From Candidatus Cloacimonadales bacterium (GTDB lineage Bacteria > Cloacimonadota > Cloacimonadia > Cloacimonadales > JAFGVF01): a stretch of DNA of 64,000 bases. The notes beneath the pieces are model-generated. The model was not told the DNA's origin, did no database searches, and was given only the letters and a program-made list of their open reading frames with translations. The DNA lies in NCBI GenBank assembly GCA_963663475.2, contig CAXXJV010000001.1, forward strand, positions 736,001 to 800,000, read 5' to 3'. The translations under genes and the position numbers were made by a program. Below are positions 17,064 through 48,005 of this stretch, piece by piece; the stretch's first letter is position 1; every line of letters begins with the position of its first letter.

Positions 17064-17086
17064 AAAATATAATCATGGAGGAATAC

Positions 17087-17452
17087 ATGTCCGATAAAAA
17101 ACAGCAAATTATTGATCTTGTAAAAGAGATGAGTGTAATGGAGTTATCCGAATTAGTTACTGAAATGGAAGAAATTTTTGGTGTATCAGCAGCAGCTGCT
17201 GTTGCTGTAGCTGCAGGTCCTGCAGAAGCTGCAGAAGAGAAAACAGAATTTGATGTTGTTCTTGTAAGCGCAGGTGCTAAAAAGATTAATGTAATTAAGG
17301 CTGTAAGAGAAATCACCAAACTTGGTCTTAAAGAAGCAAAAGGCTTGGTAGATACAGCTCCACAAACAGTTGCAGAAGCAGTCACAAAAGATGAAGCTGA
17401 AGCAATGAAGAAATCATTTGAAGATGCTGGTGCAACAGTAGAAATCAAATAA
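17087..17452 (+). CDS. rplL: 50S ribosomal protein L7/L12
   Basis: GGAGG RBS before the ATG at 17087; [17 protein letters not shown] and LGLKEAK motifs. Confidence 0.98.
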
Positions 17453-17642: not shown

Positions 17643-20600
17643 TTGAAAAAGTTCAAAAGTTATTCCAGAATATCCAAGAAATTTATCGAGTTGGGAATAC
17701 CGCAAGTAGAAGTACCAAATCTTTTATCTATGCAGGTTGATTCTTTTGAAGATTTTATTCAAAAAGATGTTCATCCCCAACAGCGAACTAATTTCGGATT
17801 GCAAGCTGTTTTTGAGAATTTATTTCCCATCACAGACCCAAAAGAAAACTATGAATTAGAATTTGTAGAATACCGAATCTTAAAAGAAAAATATTCAATT
17901 GATGAATGTATTGAAAGAAATTTATCGTACCAAGTTCCCTTAAAAATAAAATTAAGATTAAAAGTCTATGAAGTTGATGAAAATGAAAGTTTTGATATCA
18001 TCGTAGATTCTGTCGGTAGTAATACAAATGATGTAAAGCAGTTTTTAATAACAGGTCTAAATTGGGATGAAGTTTCAGCTACAAATATACTGGAAGCAGT
18101 AGAAACTAATGAAGATACCAATAGGATAATTAATTCTTGTGATGAAGCTGAAGACGCAAAACAAATTCTGAACACCTTAAAAACTTTCGGAGTAACAGGA
18201 AGAATCCAAAAGAGGATTGATAAAACAAGAACTCTGAGAGATATAATGGAACAAGAAGTTTTCCTAGGTGATATTCCTTTAATTACAGAACAAGGAACGT
18301 TCGTAATTAACGGAGCTGAAAGAGTCATTATATCACAGTTACAAAGATCACCTGGTGTGTATTTTTCTGAAGAGAAACACCCAAGTGGAAAGATGCTTAT
18401 ATCATCAAAAATTATCCCATATAATGGAAGCTGGTTAGAATTCCATATCGACATACATGATGTTGTATTTGTGAATATCGATAAAAGAAGAAAGTTACCT
18501 GTGTCTATTCTGCTTAGAGCTGTTGGATATATTCCAGACAACTATACAGAAATTCCTGAAGCTAGAGAAACTCTCCGTCTCTCTGACGAAAAAGGTAATG
18601 TTTCCTTAAAAGCAAAAAATTCTTATGCATATGCTGATATTTATGATCCTCGTGAGGGTCGTGAAGACCAGATATTAGTTAAGGCAAAAACAAAACTTAA
18701 CAACGAAATTGTTGAAGAATTATTAAGTGCTGGTATCATTGAAATTGATACAATAAATAATAAATATATCTCTACAGATACAGTTCTTAGAGAAATCTTC
18801 TATGATATTGAAGAAATCTCTACCAATAAGGCTGAAAAGAGATTTACTGCTTATGAAATCATCGCATCTGATGGTTCTTTATTAGCAGAAGCTAATACTG
18901 AAATTGATAAAGAACTTATTAAAGATCTTATTGATTGTGGTATTAAAAAAGTTAAAGTTGTTTCTGAAGAGAGTGATTTTAATCGTAAGATTTTAGAGAA
19001 GACACTCCTTAAAGATCCAACACGTAATCAAGAAGAAGCTGCTCAAAAAATCTATAGTTTAGTTAGACCAGGCGAAGATGAAGTGCCTATTGAAAATGCT
19101 ATGGATCTTATTGATAAAATGTTCTTTAACTCAAAAAGATATAATTTAGGTAATGTGGGAAGACATAAGTTAAATGCTAAATTAGGTTTTGAGCCTGATT
19201 ATGGTACTAATGTTCTTACCCAGAAAGATTTTACAGAAATTATTCATTATATGATTGCTATTTTCAAGGATGAAAAAGATATCGATGATATTGATCACCT
19301 TGCAAATAGAAGAGTTAGAACTGTTGGCGAACTCTTAGAAGAGCAATATAAGACAGGTCTATCTATGATAGCTAGAATTGCTTTAGAAAGAATGGCTATT
19401 GCTAATCCTGATGAGGTTACTGTTCATGATTTGATTAACAGTAATGCGCTTATCACAGTTATTGATTCATTCTTCTTAACAGGTCAGCTTTCACAGTTTA
19501 TGGACCAAACTAATCCTCTTTCTGCTCTTACTCATAAGAGAAGATTGTCTGCTTTAGGACCTGGTGGTTTGGCCAGAGATAGAGCTGGTTTTGAAGTACG
19601 TGATATTCACTACTCTCATTACGGCAGAATCTGTCCGATTGAAACACCTGAAGGACCAAGTATTGGACTTCTAAATTCTCCAGCTATTTATTCGCGTATT
19701 AATGAGTTTGGCTTCTTAGAAACTCCTTATATTAGAGTAGAAAATGGTGTAATTACTAATAGAGTTGATTATTTAGATGCTCATGAAGAGGATAAGTATA
19801 TTATTGCTCAGCATGTAAATATTGATGATGATTTAGTTATTACAGATAAATATATCTTTGCTCGTGAAAAGGATGAATATGTCAATGTTACTCCAGAACA
19901 AATTGATTACATTGATGTTTCTCCACAGCAAGTTGTATCAGTATCAGCAGCATTGGTTCCATTCTTGGAACATGATGATGCTAACCGTGCTTTGATGGGA
20001 TCTAACATGCAGAGACAATCTGTTCCACTGTTAAATCCTCAAACACCTATTATAGGTACTGGTATTGAGAAGATAGTTGCCAGAGAATCTGGTGCTGTTA
20101 TTTTAGCTAAATATAATGGTGAAGTAACTAATGTTACTGCTGAATATATTGATATTAAACCTGATGCATCTAATGATGATATCGATTTAATTAGAGAAGA
20201 AAGAGTTTACTTAAAGAAATATGTGAGATCTAATCAAGATACATGTATTAACCAACGTCCTATTGTCAAGATTGGAGATAAGGTTACTAAAGGACAGCCA
20301 ATATCTGATGGGCCTGGTATCGAAGGAGATAGATTAGCCCTTGGTTCTAATATGGTTGTTGCTTTCATGCCTTGGTATGGATATAACTATGAGGATGCTA
20401 TTATTCTTAGTGAACATGTGGCACGTAAAGATACTCTTACCTCAATCTATATCGAAGAGTTAGAAGTTCTTGTTAGAGATTTAAAGAACGGAAAAGAAGA
20501 GCTAGCAAGTGATATTCCTAATGTCCCTGTTAATTCTTTAAGAAACTTAGATAAATCTGGTATTATCAGAGTTGGTTCTGTTATTACTGCTGGCGATGTT

Positions 20601-21887
20601 ATCGTTGGTAAAATAACACCTAAGTCTGTTGAAATTGATCCTTCTCCAGAAGAAAACTTAATGAGAGCTCTCTTTGGTGATCGAGCTGGTGACTATACTA
20701 ATAGTTCATTAAAAGCAAAACCTGGAATGGAAGGTGTTGTTCTTGATGTAAAAGTTTTCTCTCGTTATGAAGATATTATTGAATTTGAAGAAGATCATAA
20801 GGCTCAAATAGCTAAACTTAAAAAAGATAATATAGAAAGAAAGAAAAAGATCGAAAACTTTAAGAAAGAGAAACTTAGTGAACTTCTATTAGGACAGGTT
20901 GCTAAGAACATCGTTGATTCTAAAGATGGTAGATTCTATATTCTTTCTGGAAAGAAAATTACTGCTTCTGACTTAGAAAAGATTAACTTCTCAAGAGTTA
21001 ATTTAGAAGTTGAGATGGTGGCAGATCCTGAGAAATATAAAGAGATATACAAAACTGTAGCTTTGAAAGCAAATGAAGCTATGGAAGAGAGCGAAAATAT
21101 CTATAAGAAGTCAAGAGATAGAATCAAACATGGTGATGAACTTCCTTATGGTGTTCGCAAAATGGTCAAAGTCTATATTGCTAAAAAGAGAAAAATTCAA
21201 GTTGGTGATAAGATGGCTGGACGTCATGGTAACAAAGGTGTTATATCTATCGTTGCTCCAATTGAAGATATGCCATTCATGAGCGACGGTACTCCAGTTG
21301 ATATCGTACTTAATCCACTTGGTGTTCCTTCTCGTATGAATATCGGACAGATCATGGAAACTCACCTTGGTATGGCAGCTAAAACTTTAGGATTCCATGT
21401 GGAAACTCCTATATTTGATGGTGCTAAAATTGAGGATATTGAAGCTGAACTTAGAGAGGCTAATTTACCTACTGATGGTAAACAAGTCCTATATGATGGA
21501 AAAACTGGTGAACCTTTCAAAGAAAGAGTTACTGTTGGCGTCATGTATATGATGAAACTTAATCACTTGGTTGCAGATAAAATGCATGCCCGTTCAACTG
21601 GGCCATACTCATTGATTACCCAACAACCTCTTGGTGGTAAGGCTCAACATGGTGGACAACGTCTTGGAGAGATGGAAGTCTGGGCTTTAGAAGCTTATGG
21701 TGCTGCCCATCTTTTAGAAGAGATGTTAACAATCAAATCTGATGATGTCGATGGAAGAACTAATGCTTTCAAAGCGATAACCAATGGACAGAACCCACCT
21801 GCACCAGGTACTCCAGAATCATTTAATGTCTTAATTAGTGAATTAAAGTCTCTTGCTTTTGATATAGAGTTCTTAAAAGATGAGTAG
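17643..21887 (+). CDS. rpoB: RNA polymerase beta subunit, with lineage-specific inserts
   Basis: GTFVINGAER, SQFMDQTNPL, GDKMAGRHGNKG and GEMEVWALEAYG motifs. Confidence 0.99.
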   Translation: MKKFKSYSRISKKFIELGIPQVEVPNLLSMQVDSFEDFIQKDVHPQQRTNFGLQAVFENLFPITDPKENYELEFVEYRILKEKYSIDECIERNLSYQVPLKIKLRLKVYEVDENESFDIIVDSVGSNTNDVKQFLITGLNWDEVSATNILEAVETNEDTNRIINSCDEAEDAKQILNTLKTFGVTGRIQKRIDKTRTLRDIMEQEVFLGDIPLITEQGTFVINGAERVIISQLQRSPGVYFSEEKHPSGKMLISSKIIPYNGSWLEFHIDIHDVVFVNIDKRRKLPVSILLRAVGYIPDNYTEIPEARETLRLSDEKGNVSLKAKNSYAYADIYDPREGREDQILVKAKTKLNNEIVEELLSAGIIEIDTINNKYISTDTVLREIFYDIEEISTNKAEKRFTAYEIIASDGSLLAEANTEIDKELIKDLIDCGIKKVKVVSEESDFNRKILEKTLLKDPTRNQEEAAQKIYSLVRPGEDEVPIENAMDLIDKMFFNSKRYNLGNVGRHKLNAKLGFEPDYGTNVLTQKDFTEIIHYMIAIFKDEKDIDDIDHLANRRVRTVGELLEEQYKTGLSMIARIALERMAIANPDEVTVHDLINSNALITVIDSFFLTGQLSQFMDQTNPLSALTHKRRLSALGPGGLARDRAGFEVRDIHYSHYGRICPIETPEGPSIGLLNSPAIYSRINEFGFLETPYIRVENGVITNRVDYLDAHEEDKYIIAQHVNIDDDLVITDKYIFAREKDEYVNVTPEQIDYIDVSPQQVVSVSAALVPFLEHDDANRALMGSNMQRQSVPLLNPQTPIIGTGIEKIVARESGAVILAKYNGEVTNVTAEYIDIKPDASNDDIDLIREERVYLKKYVRSNQDTCINQRPIVKIGDKVTKGQPISDGPGIEGDRLALGSNMVVAFMPWYGYNYEDAIILSEHVARKDTLTSIYIEELEVLVRDLKNGKEELASDIPNVPVNSLRNLDKSGIIRVGSVITAGDVIVGKITPKSVEIDPSPEENLMRALFGDRAGDYTNSSLKAKPGMEGVVLDVKVFSRYEDIIEFEEDHKAQIAKLKKDNIERKKKIENFKKEKLSELLLGQVAKNIVDSKDGRFYILSGKKITASDLEKINFSRVNLEVEMVADPEKYKEIYKTVALKANEAMEESENIYKKSRDRIKHGDELPYGVRKMVKVYIAKKRKIQVGDKMAGRHGNKGVISIVAPIEDMPFMSDGTPVDIVLNPLGVPSRMNIGQIMETHLGMAAKTLGFHVETPIFDGAKIEDIEAELREANLPTDGKQVLYDGKTGEPFKERVTVGVMYMMKLNHLVADKMHARSTGPYSLITQQPLGGKAQHGGQRLGEMEVWALEAYGAAHLLEEMLTIKSDDVDGRTNAFKAITNGQNPPAPGTPESFNVLISELKSLAFDIEFLKDE

Positions 21888-21919: not shown

Positions 21920-24900
21920 GTGAATAGAAATATTAAACGAGAAAAAAAGATAGAAAATTATGATGCCGTTCGTATTCGTATTGCGTCACCAGATGCAATA
22001 AGATCTTGGTCTTATGGAGAAGTCGTAAAACCAGATACACTAAATTACCGTACTTTAAAACCGGAAAAAGATGGTCTCTTCTGTGAAAGAATTTTTGGAC
22101 CAGAGAAAGACTACGAATGCTCATGTGGAAAGTATAAGAAAAAAAGATTTGCAGGTACTATATGCGACCGTTGTGGAGTAGAAGTTACTTCCTCACGAGT
22201 AAGAAGAACACGTATGGGGCACATTGAATTAGCTGTTCCAGTTGCTCATATCTCATTCGTGAAAAGTGCTCCAAGTAAAATTGGAACATTGTTAGGTCTA
22301 ACTATTAGTAACCTTGAGAAAATCTTAGTATATGAATCTTATGTTGTCTTAAATCCAGGAGACCAAGATTATAGTGTAAACGAATTAATCGATACTGAAG
22401 AGTTTTATGAAATACGTGACCAAGTTTCACGTGACCCAAACTTCTCAGCAAAGATTGGTGCAGAAGCAGTTAAAGAAATGCTTCAATCATTAAATCTTGA
22501 TGATATAGCTGCTGATTTAAGAACCCGTATCAAATGGGAAACTTCAACCATGCGTAAGCAAAAGATGATTAAGCGTCTCAAAGTTGTTGAGGCTTTCAGA
22601 CAGTCTGGTAATAAACCAGAATGGATGATATTAGAAGTATTACCTGTACTTCCTCCAACTTTAAGACCATTAGTACCTCTTGATGGTGGTAAGTTTGCAA
22701 CAGCTGACTTTAATGATTTATACAGACGTGTTATCACTAGAAATAATAGATTAAAAGGTCTTATTGAAATAAGAGCACCTGAGGTTATTCTTAGGAATGA
22801 AAAGAGAATGCTACAGGAAGCTGTTGATGCTTTAATTGATAATTCCAAGAAAGCAAGACCTGTTAAAGGTAGAGGAAACAGAGCTCTAAAGAGTCTTACC
22901 GACCAACTCAAAGGTAAGCAAGGTCGTTTCCGTCAAAACCTCTTAGGTAAACGTGTAGATTACTCAGGACGTTCAGTTATAACTGTTGGTCCTCACCTAA
23001 AAATCTATGAAATGGGTTTACCTAAAGATATGGCTGTTGAGCTTTTCAAACCATTTATAATTGAAAGATTAGAGAAAATGGGAACTGCTGAAAAAACTAA
23101 AACAGCTAAAAAAATGGTAGAAAAAAAACAGCCTGAAATCTGGAAGATCTTAGAAGAAATTATTCAAGATTATCCTGTAATGTTAAACCGTGCTCCTACT
23201 CTTCACAGACTAGGTATTCAAGCTTTTATGCCTGTTTTAACAGAAGGAAAGTCTTTACAGTTACATCCTATGGTTTGTACACCTTTCAATGCTGACTTTG
23301 ATGGTGACCAAATGGGTTGTTATATCCCTCTATCTCAAGAAGCAAGAATGGAAGCAAGAATCTTGATGCTATCATCAAGAAACTTATTACTTCCAGCTAG
23401 TGGACGCCTAGCTATGGCTCCTTCACAAGATATTGTGCTTGGTTGCTTCTATTTGACTATGGAAGGATCTCCTCAACCTAAAGAGGAAGAGGAAATTAAC
23501 AAACTTAAATGGTTTGGTTCTGCCGAAGAAATGGTGAATTATTACGAAAGCGAAGAAATGCTCTTTGACCAGAAAAGAGAATCTGAAGCAATGAGAGCTG
23601 AAGATGTTAGTAAAAGAACAATAAATCTTCATACTTGGATTCGGATTAAAATTAAAGGAAAATGGATTGTTACTACTGTTGGTAGAGTTCTCTTTAATGA
23701 AGCTTTACCAGAGGCAATTCCTTTCCAAAACAAGGTATTTGATAAAGGTTCCTTAAATGACTTAGCTATGGTTTGTTTCCATCAGGTAGGACAATGGGAA
23801 ACTGCTATCTTCCTTGATAAAATGAAAGAAACAGGTTTCAAATATGCTACTCGTGGTGGTATCACATTTAGTTTTGGTGATATTATTGTTCCCGAGAAGA
23901 AATATGAAATCATTGAAAATACTCAGAAAATCGTTGATGAAATAACTGATACCTATAATATGGGTATTATTACTGATAGTGAACGCTCATCACGTGTTGT
24001 GGATAGCTGGAAAATTGCTACTGAAGAGGTTACTGATAGCTTAATGGATGAGCTTAAAGTAAGTGAAGGTGGATATAACTCAATTTATATGATGTATCTA
24101 TCTGGTGCTCGTGGTAGTAAAACTCAGATTAAACAGCTTGGTGGTATGCGTGGTCTTATGGATAAACCATCAGCTAAGGGTGGTGGAAACGAAGTTATTG
24201 AAACACCTATTAAATCAAACTTTAAAGAAGGTTTGAGCGTGTTAGAATTCTTCATTTCTACTCACGGATCTAGAAAAGGTCTTGCTGATACAGCTTTGAA
24301 AACAGCTGGTGCTGGTTACCTGACAAGAAGACTAGTTGACGTAGCTCAAAACTCTATGATTGTAGAAGATGATTGTGGTACTATTGATGGTATCGTGATG
24401 TCTGCTTTAAAAGAGGGTAATGAGGTTATTGAATCTTTGAAAGATAGAATTACTGGTAGAACTGCAGTTGATGATGTTGAAGACCCAAGAACAGGTAAAA
24501 TCATTGTCCATGCTGGAGAGGAAATCTCAGGTGAAACTGCGGAAACTATCCAAAAACATGGTGTTTTAAGTGTGAGAGTTAGATCAGTTCTAACTTGTCA
24601 ATCAGAGAAAGGTGTTTGTGCTAAATGTTACGGTATTAACCTTTCAACCCACAAACCTGTGTCTGCTGGTGAACCTGTTGGTATCATCGCTGCCCAGTCT
24701 ATTGGTGAACCTGGTACTCAATTGACACTTAGAACTTTCCATATTGGTGGTACTGCTTCTACTGATGTTGATTCTGCTTCCGTTGAAGCTAAAAATGATG
24801 GTTATATCAGATTTGATAATGTTCAGTTTGTTGTAGATAGTCAAGGACAGATGATTTCATCTTCTCACTTGGGTAAGCTATTTGTTGTTCCTGAACCAGA

Positions 24901-26665
24901 TTCTGATATTATCTTAGAAGAATATAAAGTTGAATATGCTGCTATTATTGAAGTTAAAGATGGACAAAAAGTCGTAGCAGATACAAAATTATTCTCTTGG
25001 GATCAATATAATAATACTCTTATTTCAACTGTTAAAGGTGTTCTTTATTATGATAACTTTGTGAAAAATGTTACCTATAAAGAAGAATTTAATGATTTAA
25101 CAGGATCTAAAGAGCTTACTATTATTGAATCTAAAGATAGAATTCAACCACAGTTCAAAATTGAAACAGAAGATGGACAGACTGTTCTAGTTCCACTTCA
25201 AACTGGTTTGAGCGTCTTGGTTGATAATGAACAAACTGTTCAAGTTGGACAGAAAATCGGTCAAACATCACGTGTTACTATTAAACAGGGTGATATTACT
25301 GGTGGTCTTCCACGAGTTGAAGACCTCTTTGAAGCTAGAATACCTAAAGAAAAAGCTGTTATCTCTGAGATTGAAGGTAGAATCTCTATCGGTAATCTAA
25401 AACGTAATGGCCGTGATATTTATATCACTCCTCCTACTGGTATTTTCGCCCTAGAAGATGGTGTAATGCAAGCTGTAGATGATCTTCCTTTAATTTCATC
25501 TAGTAACATTATAAAATCTGGAAATGAAACTCTTTCTCCTGTTACAGGAACCATCATTGCTATTGAAAGTATTAATAAGATGGCTAAAGTTTCAATTAAA
25601 GATGATGAAGGTAATGTCAGCCTTGTAGAATGCGAAGATGGTCAAGATATCGGTTTACTTACTTACGTTGGACAGAGAGTTCAAAAAGATGATGCTATTG
25701 CTGGTGCAAAAACTTACTCACCAACTATTAGGCTTATACCTGCTAGTGGCGTGAAAGCTAAATCTGCTGGCAAAGTTGTCAAAATTGAAAAAGTCGAGAA
25801 TGGTTTTGAAGTAACTGTAGAACCAAAATCTACAAAGAAATCAACCGCTACTGTTTATACAATAAGTGACGGACATAAACCATTCAACCTTCTTGGTAGT
25901 AATGTTAAAAAGAATGATATCTTAGGTGGATATGTACATTATATTGCCACTGGACAAGAAGCAATCCTACCTAGTGGAACAAAAGTTACTAAAGGTCAAG
26001 CCCTAGCTGGTAGAAACCATGTAATTCCAATAGGTAAAAGAATTATTATTCACGAAGGTGATAATGTTAATTCTGGTACTGCCCTATGTGATGGACCTAT
26101 TGATCCTCACGATATTCTTAGAATTCGTGGTATCAAAGAATCCCAAAAACTTATTCTTGATGAAATCCAAGAAGTTTATCGTAAACAAGGTGTGAAAATC
26201 GATGATAAACACATCGGTATTATTGTGAGACAGATGTTCAAGAAAGTTAAAATTCTTGATCCTGGTGATACTTATTTCCTTGAAGGCGATACAGTTGATA
26301 AACTTATCGCAACTAAAGAAAATGCTAGACAAGAAGGATTAGGTGGCAAAGGTGCTACATTCGAACAACTTCTTCTTGGTATTACCAAAACTTCTTTGTT
26401 GACAGAATCATGGCTTTCTGCAGCTTCGTTCATGGAGACTACAAAGGTCCTAACTCAAGCTGCTGTTGAAGGCAAAGTTGATAACTTAGAAGGTCTCAAA
26501 GAAAGCATAATCCTTGGTCACAAAATCCCTGTTGGTACAGGCTCTAAGTTCTATACTAACAAGATCAAGGAACTAGAAAAAAGCGGCAAAACGGTTGCCG
26601 AAATGGTTGAGCTTTTAGCTCACAAATCTGATGACGAGTCCATGGAAGACTTGTTAGACTTTTAA
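21920..26665 (+). CDS. rpoC: RNA polymerase beta' subunit, with trigger-loop and jaw inserts
   Basis: N-terminal Zn ribbon, NADFDGDQM, GYLTRRL and GEPGTQLTLRTFH motifs. Confidence 0.99.
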   Translation: MNRNIKREKKIENYDAVRIRIASPDAIRSWSYGEVVKPDTLNYRTLKPEKDGLFCERIFGPEKDYECSCGKYKKKRFAGTICDRCGVEVTSSRVRRTRMGHIELAVPVAHISFVKSAPSKIGTLLGLTISNLEKILVYESYVVLNPGDQDYSVNELIDTEEFYEIRDQVSRDPNFSAKIGAEAVKEMLQSLNLDDIAADLRTRIKWETSTMRKQKMIKRLKVVEAFRQSGNKPEWMILEVLPVLPPTLRPLVPLDGGKFATADFNDLYRRVITRNNRLKGLIEIRAPEVILRNEKRMLQEAVDALIDNSKKARPVKGRGNRALKSLTDQLKGKQGRFRQNLLGKRVDYSGRSVITVGPHLKIYEMGLPKDMAVELFKPFIIERLEKMGTAEKTKTAKKMVEKKQPEIWKILEEIIQDYPVMLNRAPTLHRLGIQAFMPVLTEGKSLQLHPMVCTPFNADFDGDQMGCYIPLSQEARMEARILMLSSRNLLLPASGRLAMAPSQDIVLGCFYLTMEGSPQPKEEEEINKLKWFGSAEEMVNYYESEEMLFDQKRESEAMRAEDVSKRTINLHTWIRIKIKGKWIVTTVGRVLFNEALPEAIPFQNKVFDKGSLNDLAMVCFHQVGQWETAIFLDKMKETGFKYATRGGITFSFGDIIVPEKKYEIIENTQKIVDEITDTYNMGIITDSERSSRVVDSWKIATEEVTDSLMDELKVSEGGYNSIYMMYLSGARGSKTQIKQLGGMRGLMDKPSAKGGGNEVIETPIKSNFKEGLSVLEFFISTHGSRKGLADTALKTAGAGYLTRRLVDVAQNSMIVEDDCGTIDGIVMSALKEGNEVIESLKDRITGRTAVDDVEDPRTGKIIVHAGEEISGETAETIQKHGVLSVRVRSVLTCQSEKGVCAKCYGINLSTHKPVSAGEPVGIIAAQSIGEPGTQLTLRTFHIGGTASTDVDSASVEAKNDGYIRFDNVQFVVDSQGQMISSSHLGKLFVVPEPDSDIILEEYKVEYAAIIEVKDGQKVVADTKLFSWDQYNNTLISTVKGVLYYDNFVKNVTYKEEFNDLTGSKELTIIESKDRIQPQFKIETEDGQTVLVPLQTGLSVLVDNEQTVQVGQKIGQTSRVTIKQGDITGGLPRVEDLFEARIPKEKAVISEIEGRISIGNLKRNGRDIYITPPTGIFALEDGVMQAVDDLPLISSSNIIKSGNETLSPVTGTIIAIESINKMAKVSIKDDEGNVSLVECEDGQDIGLLTYVGQRVQKDDAIAGAKTYSPTIRLIPASGVKAKSAGKVVKIEKVENGFEVTVEPKSTKKSTATVYTISDGHKPFNLLGSNVKKNDILGGYVHYIATGQEAILPSGTKVTKGQALAGRNHVIPIGKRIIIHEGDNVNSGTALCDGPIDPHDILRIRGIKESQKLILDEIQEVYRKQGVKIDDKHIGIIVRQMFKKVKILDPGDTYFLEGDTVDKLIATKENARQEGLGGKGATFEQLLLGITKTSLLTESWLSAASFMETTKVLTQAAVEGKVDNLEGLKESIILGHKIPVGTGSKFYTNKIKELEKSGKTVAEMVELLAHKSDDESMEDLLDF

Positions 26666-45548: not shown

Positions 45549-46107
45549 ACAGGAAGCTAAAGAAATATTAGCAAGATATTTGGAAAAGGAAAGCCTTAGA
45601 CAACATTGCTTAGCAACCGCCTTGGTAATGGAGAAGATTGCAGAGAAAATAGGAGCAAATCAAGAAGATTATTATATTGCCGGTTATTTACACGATATTG
45701 ATTTAGATCTCGTGGGTGATGATATGACTCTGCATGCCTTACGGGGAGCCGAAATTTTGAAAGATTATGATATTCCTCAAGATATTATTAATGCAATTCT
45801 TGCCCATAATAAGCATAAAGACCTAGAAAGTGACATAGAAAAAGCACTATGGATTGCAGACCCTGTAAATGGATTAGTTATTGCTTCCGCTCTTATGAGA
45901 CCTGATAAATCAATTTCAACCATGAAATTAAAATCTTTAAAAAAGAAGTTCAAGTCAAAAAACTTTGCTGCTGGTGTTTCCCGTGATCAAATCAATGATT
46001 GTTATCTCCTAAATTTTACTCTAGATGAATTTCTCCAGCTAGCAATTGATGCCTTAGCTGATCATGAAAAAGAACTAAGCCTGGGAACTGAAGAAGCTTG
46101 TGAATAG
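45538..46107 (+). CDS. HDIG/HD-domain hydrolase
   Basis: HC, G-LHDID, H and AH residues, then KSLKKKFK-K-FAAGV-R. Confidence 0.85.
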   Translation: MVNRQEAKEILARYLEKESLRQHCLATALVMEKIAEKIGANQEDYYIAGYLHDIDLDLVGDDMTLHALRGAEILKDYDIPQDIINAILAHNKHKDLESDIEKALWIADPVNGLVIASALMRPDKSISTMKLKSLKKKFKSKNFAAGVSRDQINDCYLLNFTLDEFLQLAIDALADHEKELSLGTEEACE

Positions 46108-46450
46108 TCCACAGTTAAGTATTCTGCTTTTAGGTATTTTCCTAATCTTGAATATTCTTGATGCCCACTCCACTTGGTTAGTTATCAAACCCTATCATTT
46201 TTACAGAGAAAAGAATATCATTGCTCGCTTTTTCTTTAAGAAATTTGGTCTGCTTAGAGGTATTATATTCTTTAAGTTGCTTCTCTTGTTACTCTTCTCT
46301 CTGATAATAGTATTTTATGTCTTACCCGAATATCTAACTCTGAATACTTCAATCTTAATCGGAAATGCAATTTTTACCTTTGTTGTTTTAAATAACTATA
46401 GAATTTATAGAAAAATTAACTTCAAAATAAAGTCTGGTAAAAATCATTAG
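46100..46450 (+). CDS. Small membrane protein (DUF5658-like)
   Basis: N-LD--ST, E-N and K motif pattern with 3 TM segments; coupled to the upstream gene. Confidence 0.6.
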   Translation: MNSPQLSILLLGIFLILNILDAHSTWLVIKPYHFYREKNIIARFFFKKFGLLRGIIFFKLLLLLLFSLIIVFYVLPEYLTLNTSILIGNAIFTFVVLNNYRIYRKINFKIKSGKNH

Positions 46451-46527
46451 CCAAGACTGGGAAGGCCAGCATTCCTGCTGGCATCTTTCTTTATTTCTTT
46501 CTTTCTTTCTTCTCTTGGATGGATGCC

Positions 46528-48005
46528 CAGACTGTGTAAAAAGAAATAGTCTATCCACGAATTTCACGAATTTCACGAATTACTTTTTGCTAAAAGCAAA
46601 AAAAGAGAGAAGAAAAGATCCTTACCACAGAGTTCACAGAGTTTAGGAAACAATTAGCTTGCTAAAAGTCTGTCCGTATTTGAGTCGCGGGATTCTAGCC
46701 CGCGTTTACGCAGGTGACAAGTGGTTATGGGATTGGGTCGCGGGATTCCAGCCCGCGTTTACGTAGATATCAAGTGCTTACGTTATTGGGTCGCTGGATT
46801 CTAGCCCGGGTTTACGTAGATATCAAGTGGTTATGGGATTGGGTCGCGGGATTCTAGCCCGCGTTTATGCAGGTGACAAGTGGTTATGGGATTGGGTCGC
46901 GGGATTCCAGCCCGCGTTTACGCAGGTGACAAGTGGTTATGGGATTGGGTCGCGGGATTCCAGCCCGCGTTTACGCAGAAGACAAGCGGTTACGGGATTG
47001 GGTCGCGGGATTCCAGCCCGCGTTTACGCAGGTGACAAGTGGTTATGGGAATGGGTCGCGGGATTCCAGCCCGCGTTTACGCAGATAATAAAGCGGTTAC
47101 GGATTGGGTCGCGGGATTCCAGCCCGCGTTTACGCAGATAATAAAGCGGTTACGGATTGGGTCGCGGGATTCCAGCCCGCGTTTATGCAGATATCAAGTG
47201 GTTATGGGATTGGGTCGCGGGATTCTAGCCCGCGTTTACGCAGGTGACAAGCGATTATGGGAATGGGTCGCGGGATTCCAGCCCGCGTTTATGCAGGTGA
47301 CAAGTGGTTACGGGAATGGGTCGCGGGATTCCAGCCCGCGTTTACGTAGAAATCAAGTGCTTACGTTATTGGGTCGCGGGATTCCAGCCCGCGTTTACGT
47401 AGATATCAAGTGCTTACGTTATTGGGTCGCTGGATTCTAGCCCGCGTTTACGCAGGTGACAAGCGATTATGGGAATGGGTCGCTGCGTTTACGTAGATAA
47501 CAAAGTGGTTATGGGATTGGGTCGCGGGATTCCAGCCCGCGTTTACGCAGATAATAAAGCGGTTACGGATTGGGTCGCGGGATTCTAGCCCGCGTTTACG
47601 CAGGTGAAAAGTGGTTATGGGATTGGGTCGCGGGATTCCAGCCCGCGTTTATGCAGGTGACAAGTGGTTACGGGAATGGGTCGCGGGATTCCAGCCCGCG
47701 TTTACGTAGATAACAAAGTGGTTATGGGAATGGGTCGCGGGATTCCAGCCCGCGTTTATGCAGATATCAAGTGCTTACGGTATTGGGTCGCTGGATTCTA
47801 GCCCGGGTTTACGTAGATATCAAGTGCTTACGGGATTGGGTCGCTGGATTCTAGCCCGTGTTTACGTAGATAACAAAGTGGTTACGGAATGGGTCGCGGG
47901 ATTCCAGCCCGCGTTTACGTAGATAACAAAGTGGTTACGGGAATGGGTCGCGGGATTCCAGCCCGCGTTTACGCAGATATCAAGTGCTTACGTTATTGGG
48001 TCGCT
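46528..48005 (+). repeat. Leader (46528-46680) plus a 25-unit tandem array of a 53-bp palindromic repeat
   Basis: Conserved 28-mer TGGGTCGCGGGATTCYAGCCCGCGTTTA plus a ~25-nt semi-variable linker. Counted 25 units (one with a deletion) and a terminal partial unit. Confidence 0.95.

Follow-up and report, generated by a model that had tools for sequence, protein, structure and literature searches.

The rpoB gene in the window (the whole stretch of 64,000 nucleotides analyzed here) encodes an RNA polymerase (RNAP) beta subunit with a real lineage-specific insertion that is of a new fold type and occupies a new site. The account to which we lean, with little more than even confidence, is that of a single-origin ClpS-like/bL12-CTD domain in a loop of the beta1 lobe, likely a copy of rplL (the gene for ribosomal protein bL12) that diverged and was kept as an acidic add-on of RNAP. 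The following features of the window are relevant to this account.

17075..17452, + strand: rplL, encoding bL12 of 125 aa, with matches to Ribosomal_L12_N (1.3e-18) and Ribosomal_L12 (1.2e-29) and the C-terminal domain (CTD) at aa 59-125
17643..21887, + strand: rpoB, encoding 1414 aa from a TTG start, with six Rpb2 Pfam domains
17952..17972, + strand: LRLKVYE (aa 104-110), a conserved beta1-lobe strand and the N-terminal border of the insertion site
17976..18224, + strand: the inserted domain (aa 112-194), with its limits taken from the alignment and its fold from AF2 and Foldseek
18141..18153, + strand: a 13-nt exact match of the insert to rplL 17390-17402, in frame and encoding DEAE in both genes
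18225..18242, + strand: the linker TRTLRD, six residues and basic, connecting the inserted domain to the beta1 strand
18243..18251, + strand: IME (aa 201-203), aligned with E. coli beta 117-119 (IKE)

In relatives that belong to neither of the two insert-bearing genera, the rpoB frames measure 1265-1292 aa; the window rpoB exceeds them by ~140 aa. Between LRLKVYE (aa 104-110) and RDIMEQEV (starting at aa 199) lie 88 residues, whereas the equivalent loop comprises ~8-12 residues in 21 related rpoB loci belonging to other genera in the order. The alignment produced with MAFFT shows a clean net insertion of 77 aa (aa 117-193), with overall bounds at aa ~113-194. The extra residues that had been reported at 17985-18212 in a first-pass annotation of this DNA are encoded there as claimed (ESFD...RIQK, aa 115-190), and the insertion is confirmed. 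Of the 53 distinct RNAP betas of solved structure that were matched, none (0/53) contains residues corresponding to the insert, and in those solved betas that matched both flanks, including that of E. coli, the two matched stretches almost adjoin each other along the chain; in the phmmer search against the PDB, RpoB query residues 196-298 matched residues 112-217 of the E. coli chain. By sequence alignment, the site is a surface loop of the RNAP beta1 lobe (beta-uD1; E. coli residues 1-152). The inserted domain is acidic (pI 4.27; 16 D/E vs 8 K/R), and the basic TRTLRD linker that follows it is invariant in 8/8 insert-bearing genomes. Six residues separate the end of the insert from the strand aligned with E. 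coli IKE, which upholds the earlier placement of the insert beside the Mfd docking strand; IKE is described as a conserved beta motif of the Mfd-RID interface (bioRxiv 10.1101/728246).

The insert was found in 8 of the 232 Cloacimonadota genomes and 2 of the 66 genera. Among 41 relatives, every one of the 7 genus g1 genomes, G000 among them, carries it, as does the single genome of genus g3, for a total of 8/41, and the loop lacks it in each of the 21 rpoB loci that were aligned from other genera (locus L009 was left out of this alignment given that its anchor motif is missing). The comparison of RpoB across related genomes thus restricts the insert to two related genera. A scan of a genome collection for the insert returned 7 loci, all from Cloacimonadota metagenome-assembled genomes, and the RpoBs returned by a word-based search numbered only 12, each at least 75% identical in the region queried. 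In a full HMMER search of 1.84 billion cluster representatives with the 88-aa insert, no L12 and no other RpoB was retrieved; the only matches at E <= 0.001 were three long repeat proteins (EF-hand-like, helical-repeat and Ig-like), with scores summed over 7-12 stretches each, which we rejected as relatives of the insert, taking the scores to be inflated by the repeats. The insert-bearing RpoBs are themselves absent from the results of this search, their 50%-identity representative presumably being one without the insert, and similar inserts may therefore be hidden within the clusters of this library.

Models of the insert were built with AlphaFold2 (AF2) either with its flanks or trimmed, and both contain the same six elements in the order beta-alpha-alpha-beta-alpha-beta (E3-12, H17-27, H32-43, E50-55, H58-70 and E74-82, in model residues). 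On the strength of these models, we predict that the insert constitutes an autonomous domain and has the ClpS-like/bL12-CTD fold, which is shared by the ClpS and L12 CTD families. Foldseek matches listed for the PDB (to rank 39 for the first model, with flanks, and to rank 27 for the trimmed model) were all ClpS or L7/L12, with no RNAP insert or BEAN-bearing chain among them. The best match of the trimmed model was Thermotoga maritima L12 (1dd3_A; E 1.5e-3, 21% identity), which, together with 2zjq_5 and 1ctf, made up the top L12 matches; 1ctf was matched at a TMt of 0.78-0.85 over both models (rmsd 1.8 A at TMt 0.85). In the viral library, the top three matches were L7/L12-type (phage) proteins, with the best TMq at 0.82 and an rmsd of 1.6 A. 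The L12-like fold proposed in the first-pass annotation is borne out by these best matches, to L12 CTD and ClpS, none of which in the PDB or the viral library was at E <= 0.001.

The same comparisons bear on an alternative that we consider unlikely, namely, that a ClpS-family adaptor domain was gained horizontally, from another phylum or a phage, and resembles L12 through the shared fold only. Such an origin would fit the first Foldseek run, in which ClpS took the first five ranks for the model with flanks (E 2.7e-3 to 4.0e-3) and L12 came after, as well as the query-normalized TM-scores, which are highest for ClpS (up to 0.74 with the trimmed model), and the length of the domain, which at 83 aa is nearer to ClpS chains (78-105 aa) than to L12 CTD chains (68-74 aa). 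It would also fit the ESM Atlas, where the nearest clusters to bear a name belong to ClpS (scores of 0.78-0.79) and two of these are predominantly viral; however, all scores for the insert (0.78-0.82) are below the 0.9 level and serve as leads only. With the higher-confidence, trimmed model, L12 comes first in both structure libraries, and the insert profile retrieved 7 PDB sequences at E <= 10, with L12 first and no ClpS among them. The codon usage of the insert is native, with a GC3 of 0.207 vs 0.208 in the remainder of rpoB. Furthermore, PF02617 matched none of the 8 inserts, and a search of 232 genomes of the phylum, among them the 8 that carry the insert, found no ClpS (PF02617) gene, which leaves no alternative native donor.

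A native candidate donor is rplL, the only sequence that PF00542 matched in a six-frame genome search with a cutoff as lax as E <= 10, with its C-terminal half located 0.5-0.9 kb upstream of the insert in the same operon. The two gap-free blocks in which the first-pass annotation had aligned the insert with the CTD of this L12 are present as written, with 6/37 and 4/21 identities, and in fixed register each beats shuffled sequences (p ~0.001). However, register-free local alignment (Smith-Waterman) gave z 1.9 and p 0.055 against shuffles, and BLASTP of the insert against its own L12 gave E 0.085, so that chance could account for the pairwise similarity when taken by itself; the resemblance gains credibility only when the predicted fold and the profile search are considered as well. 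In that search, an insert profile was compared with 177,635 PDB sequences, only 20 of which are L12 (18 CTD-bearing), and Thermotoga L12 1dd3_A ranked first (E 0.023), aligned in register (insert positions 1-65 with L12 54-118), the profile recovering 1 of the 18 CTD-bearing sequences at E <= 10. A Hidden Markov Model (HMM) of the insert was run on 30 distinct L12 CTDs from Cloacimonadales, 25 of which exceeded the 95th percentile of 9000 shuffles, with the best score for the L12 of the insert-bearing genus g3 (14.6 bits vs a shuffle maximum of 11.9), and ranked the own L12 sixth among 11,705 ORFs. In the reverse direction, an L12 HMM matched the 8 inserts with p 0.003-0.028 against shuffles, a significance that is overstated because composition shuffles destroy hydrophobic periodicity, and, over the ORFs of the genome, did not place RpoB among the top 15.

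The remaining family-level comparisons were negative. The Pfam match to Ribosomal_L12 (gathering threshold 25.9 bits), proposed as a check in the first-pass annotation, did not materialize for any of the 8 inserts at E <= 10, nor for the insert with flanks; Ribosomal_L12_N has no Pfam match in RpoB; hhalign of the insert against the L12 CTD returned a probability of 1.9%; and unrelated Pfam families reach similar E values (0.02) with the inserts, which is the chance level. Accordingly, no family-level test of L12 ancestry is significant, as judged from sequence. Collinearity between the insert and L12 in the alignments extends from beta1 through alpha1 and alpha2 to the beginning of alpha3. 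The 13-nt exact match is likewise collinear, at the start of helix 3 (blastn-short E 0.001 for the pair), and this 13-mer occurs only twice in the 3.3-Mb genome; given its dependence on the peptide match, its weight as evidence is low. Descent of the insert from rplL, as proposed earlier, appears plausible: the first rank of 1dd3_A in the profile search, the family-wide shift in scores and the failure to find ClpS in 232 genomes of the phylum speak for it, whereas Pfam (no match) and hhalign (1.9%) do not.

The marginal size of every sequence statistic, together with the inflation of significance by composition shuffles and the outcome of the search of 1.84 billion representatives (no relative at E <= 0.001 except the three repeat proteins), could also be expected if the insert had no traceable L12 or ClpS ancestry, being an unrelated or new alpha/beta domain of converged topology in which chance and hydrophobic periodicity account for the sequence matches. 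We regard this as quite unlikely, given that 1dd3_A ranks first both by sequence, among 177,635 entries, and by structure, with independent methods, that the alignments are collinear, and that the candidate donor gene lies immediately upstream.

Confidence in the models themselves differs between the two runs. For the trimmed insert, pLDDT was 86.8 and pTM 0.70, with all five models at 84.5-86.8, whereas, with flanks, the mean pLDDT was 65.5 (73-81 in the core) and 2/5 models were below 55; the alignment available to AF2 consisted of only 8 sequences, 71-98% identical. It is nevertheless improbable that the fold is an artefact of this shallow alignment and that the segment adopts another fold or is a partly disordered loop, considering the uniform scores of the trimmed models and the identity of the six elements in both runs. 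In addition, the dN/dS of the insert is 0.10-0.14, compared with 0.03-0.06 in the flanks (3 pairs), and there are no indels in it across both genera, which argues for a folded, constrained domain; the insert is under purifying selection.

If the insert is an rplL derivative, as we prefer, it would have arisen once, in the common ancestor of two sister Cloacimonadales genera (g1 and g3), most likely when the C-terminal half of rplL was copied and spliced into a surface loop of rpoB. Fast divergence would then have followed, with the loss of the basic helix surface that binds translational GTPases, and the domain would now be retained by purifying selection as an acidic, solvent-exposed RNAP add-on. 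A copy of rplL would need to have fallen to ~20% identity since the ancestor of g1 and g3, a point against this origin, with L12 being highly conserved order-wide.

Apart from the predicted beta-alpha-alpha-beta-alpha-beta fold, the insert shares with the bL12 CTD (PF00542; 1ctf, 1dd3) a weak collinear pattern (an F-D-hydrophobic strand 1, an S-x-G turn, I/V-T-G/K-L and DEAE) and an overall acidic character, and the bL12 gene is the upstream neighbor of rpoB. Unlike the insert, the bL12 CTD matches the Pfam model and has the GTPase-binding signature; the insert, in turn, is embedded within RpoB, has no hinge to an L10-binding/dimerization N-domain, and exceeds the bL12 CTD in length by ~10 residues, its alpha2-beta2 loop being extended. 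ClpS (the N-degron adaptor of ClpAP; PF02617) is similar to the insert in fold class, length, Foldseek scores and nearest language-model cluster, but there is no sequence-profile match between them and no ClpS gene was found in the phylum. Like other RNAP beta insertions (E. coli beta-i4/SI1 and beta-i9/SI2; BEAN), the insert is a lineage-restricted, autonomous domain in a surface loop, flanked by conserved beta segments and under weaker constraint than the core, and unlike BEAN (CATH 3.90.105.10), it has a predicted ClpS-like fold. BBM2, too, is reportedly a lineage-specific RNAP beta insertion domain, said to go back to work by Iyer and colleagues in 2004 and by Lane and Darst in 2010.

Our literature search yielded no description of a Cloacimonadota rpoB insert or of a ClpS-like RNAP insert. 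In the accessible part of the 2024 catalogue of RNAP insertions (PMC11515920), neither the beta-uD1 site nor a ClpS-like fold is listed, the five beta sites given there being distributed over uD2 (two sites), uD3, uD4 and uD5 (a single site in each), and the insert is, to this extent, undescribed, as the first-pass annotation had supposed. According to the same part of that source, lineage-specific bacterial RNAP insertions are almost all BEAN or HABAS, ancient and of unclear mode of origin, most having appeared soon after the last bacterial common ancestor, whereas the present insert is very young; because it is confined to two genera, its origin is still traceable. Gene neighborhood is proposed by the authors as shaping RNAP insertions (PMC11515920, section 3.2), and an rplL-derived insert would be a concrete, recent case of the mechanism suggested in that section, as well as an instance of the transcription machinery co-opting a domain of the ribosomal stalk.

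With respect to function, the first-pass annotation had suggested that the insert could alter the access of Mfd or CarD to RNAP. No stand-alone CarD was found in the 41 genomes searched, and CarD_TRCF_RID has a single match in each of 38/41 genomes, in an open frame of 877-1198 aa that is Mfd; an effect on CarD is hence discounted, no CarD being encoded. The Mfd RID is canonical in all 29 aligned sequences, insert-bearing and insert-free alike, with no obvious compensatory change in the insert-bearing genomes among them. Docking was predicted for RpoB aa 2-274 (28-row alignment) and the Mfd RID (23-row alignment), yielding a median score of 0.38 vs 0.00 for the best control, with runs agreeing in at least 93% of contacts and a partner pLDDT of at least 72; in calibration, the mark was reached by 58/80 solved complexes (only 7/80 at <= 0.60) and 2/110 mismatched pairs. 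This prediction lends weak support to the pairing of the Mfd RID with the RpoB fragment and is uninformative on contact between the insert and the RID, and its score may reflect memory because RpoB-Mfd RID is a textbook pair with solved relatives.

In L12, a conserved basic/hydrophobic surface of helices 1-2 binds translational GTPases. The corresponding order-wide residues, K-I-x-x-I-K-x-x-R ... L-G-L-K-E-A-K, are invariant in 31 L12s, and the insert has T/N-D-V-K-Q-F-L, a 2-residue gap and G-L-N-W-D-E at these positions in the HMMER and BLAST alignments, so that the conserved residues are replaced or deleted and the basic factor-binding surface is lost, in agreement with the initial observation. 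We infer that the insert does not bind translation factors; instead, it would be a lineage-specific module that docks proteins or acts sterically, next to the Mfd docking strand on the upstream face of the beta1 lobe. It is highly improbable that the insert is a recent copy of the bL12 CTD that still engages a translation partner (a translational GTPase or another stalk-binding factor); were this true, RNAP would carry a stalk-like, factor-recruiting arm, a new route of physical transcription-translation coupling, and rpoB would offer a dated example of a neighboring gene donating a domain. The insert provides a testable handle on how Mfd is affected by an add-on adjacent to the site of transcription-repair coupling. 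Its value is evolutionary and mechanistic rather than applied because the hosts are uncultured anaerobic-digester bacteria.

A second insertion is present in the same RpoB at aa 296-375; its origin by duplication of the adjacent segment was rejected given a BLASTP E value of 1.3. The Rfam scan of the window identified five tRNAs only.

The extra domain of the RNA polymerase beta subunit (RpoB) is encoded within a tuf-secE-nusG-rplKAJL-rpoBC cluster that, judging by the ORF list, is present in the window. Pfam confirmation within the cluster is confined to rplL and rpoB, with the remaining genes named by the ORF list:
17075-17452, rplL, 125 aa, Pfam-confirmed
17643-21887, rpoB, 1414 aa, Pfam-confirmed
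The first-pass annotation described the anatomy of the site correctly: 88 residues separate LRLKVYE (aa 104-110) from RDIMEQEV (aa 199 onward), and relatives have a short loop at this point. The rpoB N-terminal alignment covered 29 of 30 loci from 41 related genomes (L009 was left out, its anchor motif not being found). Among these, the insert is limited to 8 sequences, with no indels among them, from two genera, g1 (7 genomes, that of the window included) and g3 (1 genome); the remaining 21 loci, which represent the family's third genus and a further 12 families of the order, carry ~8-12 residues at the insertion point. Full-length alignment with three insert-free relatives delimits the insertion to aa 117-193 (77 residues). 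Searches with the insert alone recovered it from 8 of 232 genomes of the phylum, belonging to 2 of its 66 genera, and, across 185,579 species genomes, from seven loci, all in MAGs titled Candidatus Cloacimonadales or Cloacimonadota. Of 53 distinct solved beta subunits matching RpoB among PDB sequences, none covers the insert, and the chains that match on both sides of it do so in two stretches with hardly a gap between them in the solved chain. In this search, RpoB residues 196-298 align with E. coli beta residues 112-217, so that IME (aa 201-203), downstream of the insert, corresponds to E. coli residues 117-119.

A catalogue of RNAP insertional domains published in 2024 (PMC11515920), which omits only insertions of less than 50 residues, lists in its text five lineage-specific beta sites (two in uD2 and one each in uD3, uD5 and uD4) and assigns the BEAN fold to most insertions. 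Unlike these five, the present site lies in beta-uD1, which comprises E. coli beta residues 1-152 in Table 1 of that paper. Neither "L12" nor "ClpS" occurs in the catalogue text, and its supplementary tables might hold rarer cases; a literature search for the insert found nothing relevant. We class the insert as an RNAP insertion that is lineage-specific and has a new fold, a new site and, possibly, a traceable local donor.

The insert is a settled, selected part of RpoB, as indicated by four observations: identity between g1 and g3 is 71% in the domain vs 86% in the first 300 residues of RpoB; dN/dS, by Nei-Gojobori counting in three genome pairs, is 0.10-0.14 in the insert vs 0.03-0.06 in the conserved segments on either side; the C-terminal third, from AEDAKQ to the end of the TRTLRD linker, has a single substitution, T to M in g3, among the 8 sequences; and GC3 is 0.207 in the insert vs 0.208 in the rest of rpoB. 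The same data rule out both a recent foreign fragment and an assembly error.

The proposed likeness to the L7/L12 C-terminal domain (CTD) held up as a prediction. AlphaFold2 runs on the insert with flanks (106 aa, 8 sequences; mean pLDDT 65.5, core 73-81, ends disordered) and on a trimmed 83-aa version (pLDDT 86.8, pTM 0.70; five models spanning 84.5-86.8) both yielded strand-helix-helix-strand-helix-strand. In Foldseek comparisons with the PDB, all matches of the flanked model listed down to rank 39 were ClpS or L7/L12, and superposition on the E. coli L12 CTD (1ctf) gave TMt 0.85 and rmsd 1.8 A; for the trimmed model, Thermotoga L12 (1dd3_A, E 1.5e-3, 21% identity) ranked first, followed by Deinococcus L7 and ClpS. 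Ranks 1-3 in the viral structure library were phage L7/L12-type proteins (best TMq 0.82, rmsd 1.6 A), with ClpS next. Because no match in the PDB or the viral library reached E <= 0.001, the claim is limited to a shared, predicted fold: the insert very probably adopts the L7/L12-CTD/ClpS fold.

Descent from rplL, also proposed in the first-pass annotation, fared less evenly. The Pfam Ribosomal_L12 profile matched neither the insert with its flanks nor any of the 8 inserts, nor anything in the insert in a six-frame genome search at E <= 10. Comparison of the (shallow) insert profile with 31 L12 CTDs of the order by hhalign gave a probability of 1.9%, BLASTP against the cell's own L12 gave E 0.085, and shuffle-calibrated local alignment of this pair gave p 0.055. 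The two gap-free blocks previously reported are real (6/37 and 4/21 identities), and p is ~0.001 only with the register fixed beforehand. With an HMM of the eight inserts, T. maritima L12 ranked first of 177,635 distinct PDB sequences (E 0.023), only 20 of which are L12, 18 with the CTD. Insert positions 1-65 aligned with residues 54-118, exactly the CTD, of this chain, which is the top structural match as well. Among distinct Cloacimonadales L12 CTDs, 25 of 30 exceeded, with the insert HMM, the 95th percentile of the scores of 9000 composition shuffles, the only L12 above all shuffles being that of the insert-bearing g3, and the reverse test (L12 HMM against inserts) gave p 0.003-0.028; these shuffle figures overstate the case because the L12s are kin and shuffling destroys hydrophobic periodicity. 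For the insert HMM, the cell's own L12 ranked sixth among 11,705 stop-to-stop genome ORFs (E 6.6). A 13-nt exact match, in frame and at the collinear site where helix 3 begins, joins 18141-18153 in the insert to 17390-17402 in rplL. The 13-mer occurs nowhere else in the genome; its weight over and above the DEAE peptide common to both is small.

ClpS is the only other well-known family with the L12 CTD fold, and the best Foldseek match of the flanked model was a ClpS (1mbx_C, E 2.7e-3), but a PF02617 search, in which control genomes matched as expected, found ClpS in none of the phylum's 232 genomes, of which 151 are of high quality, and a ClpS-type origin seems unlikely. We consider an insert without traceable ancestry similarly improbable. 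Phages encode L7/L12 and larger "bL12 C-terminal domain-containing" proteins, one example, from a crAss-like phage, being 308 aa long (BFVD matches); capture of the L12 CTD by other proteins does, therefore, occur, and phages are a conceivable source of the insert. On the whole, we lean slightly towards descent from a bL12 CTD.

The insert probably no longer functions in the manner of bL12. The K-I-x-x-I-K-x-x-R helix and L-G-L-K-E-A-K, invariant in L12s of the order, form the GTPase-binding face of bL12; in the insert, these residues are replaced or deleted, in agreement with the reported loss of factor-binding residues. The insert is more acidic than the L12 CTD of the cell (pI 4.27 vs 5.39). 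An acidic, selected, folded domain is positioned on the beta1-lobe loop, right before the RID-contact strand, with an invariant six-residue basic linker. In the ClpS-like fold (SCOP), the sheet order is 1-3-2; with strand 1 antiparallel to strand 3, both ends should adjoin, a geometry that would favour its placement within a loop. On the upstream face of RNA polymerase, the insert may provide a docking or steric module peculiar to the lineage.

The IKE motif (E. coli beta I117-K118-E119) is described as highly conserved in the interface with the Mfd RNA polymerase interaction domain, RID (bioRxiv 10.1101/728246, citing Smith & Savery 2005 and complexes 3MLQ and 4KBM). Its lysine is not conserved in the order: insert-bearing genera have IME (as at 18243-18251 of the window) or MME, and the insert-free relatives (L010-L030) IIE, QIE, TLE, TIE, SIE, FIE or VVE. 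CarD, invoked earlier alongside Mfd, is irrelevant here: CarD_TRCF_RID matched in 38 of the 41 Cloacimonadales genomes searched (the other three are 68-83% complete), always once, the matching frame (877-1198 aa) being Mfd, and no stand-alone CarD was found. The Mfd RID of insert-bearing genomes is canonical and among the best-scoring, with no obvious compensating change. Docked onto RpoB aa 2-274, the RID gave a weak score of 0.38 vs 0.00 for the best control, for a pair that has solved relatives and with no contacts reported; this score is compatible with an insert that favours, impedes or does not affect Mfd.

A second insertion of ~80 residues (RpoB aa 296-375, window 18528-18767), in the beta2-lobe (uD2) region, occurs in the same two genera only and does not detectably resemble the segment next to it (E 1.3 by BLASTP); together, the two insertions explain the RpoB length of 1414 aa vs 1265-1292 aa in relatives. 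The ORF directly 3' of rpoB (21920-26665), presumably rpoC, is also long, at 1581 aa. Elsewhere, the 2-kb block 46001-48000, in which Rfam at gathering thresholds detected no rRNA or other RNA family, has a G+C content of 46.9% vs ~33% in the rest of the window.
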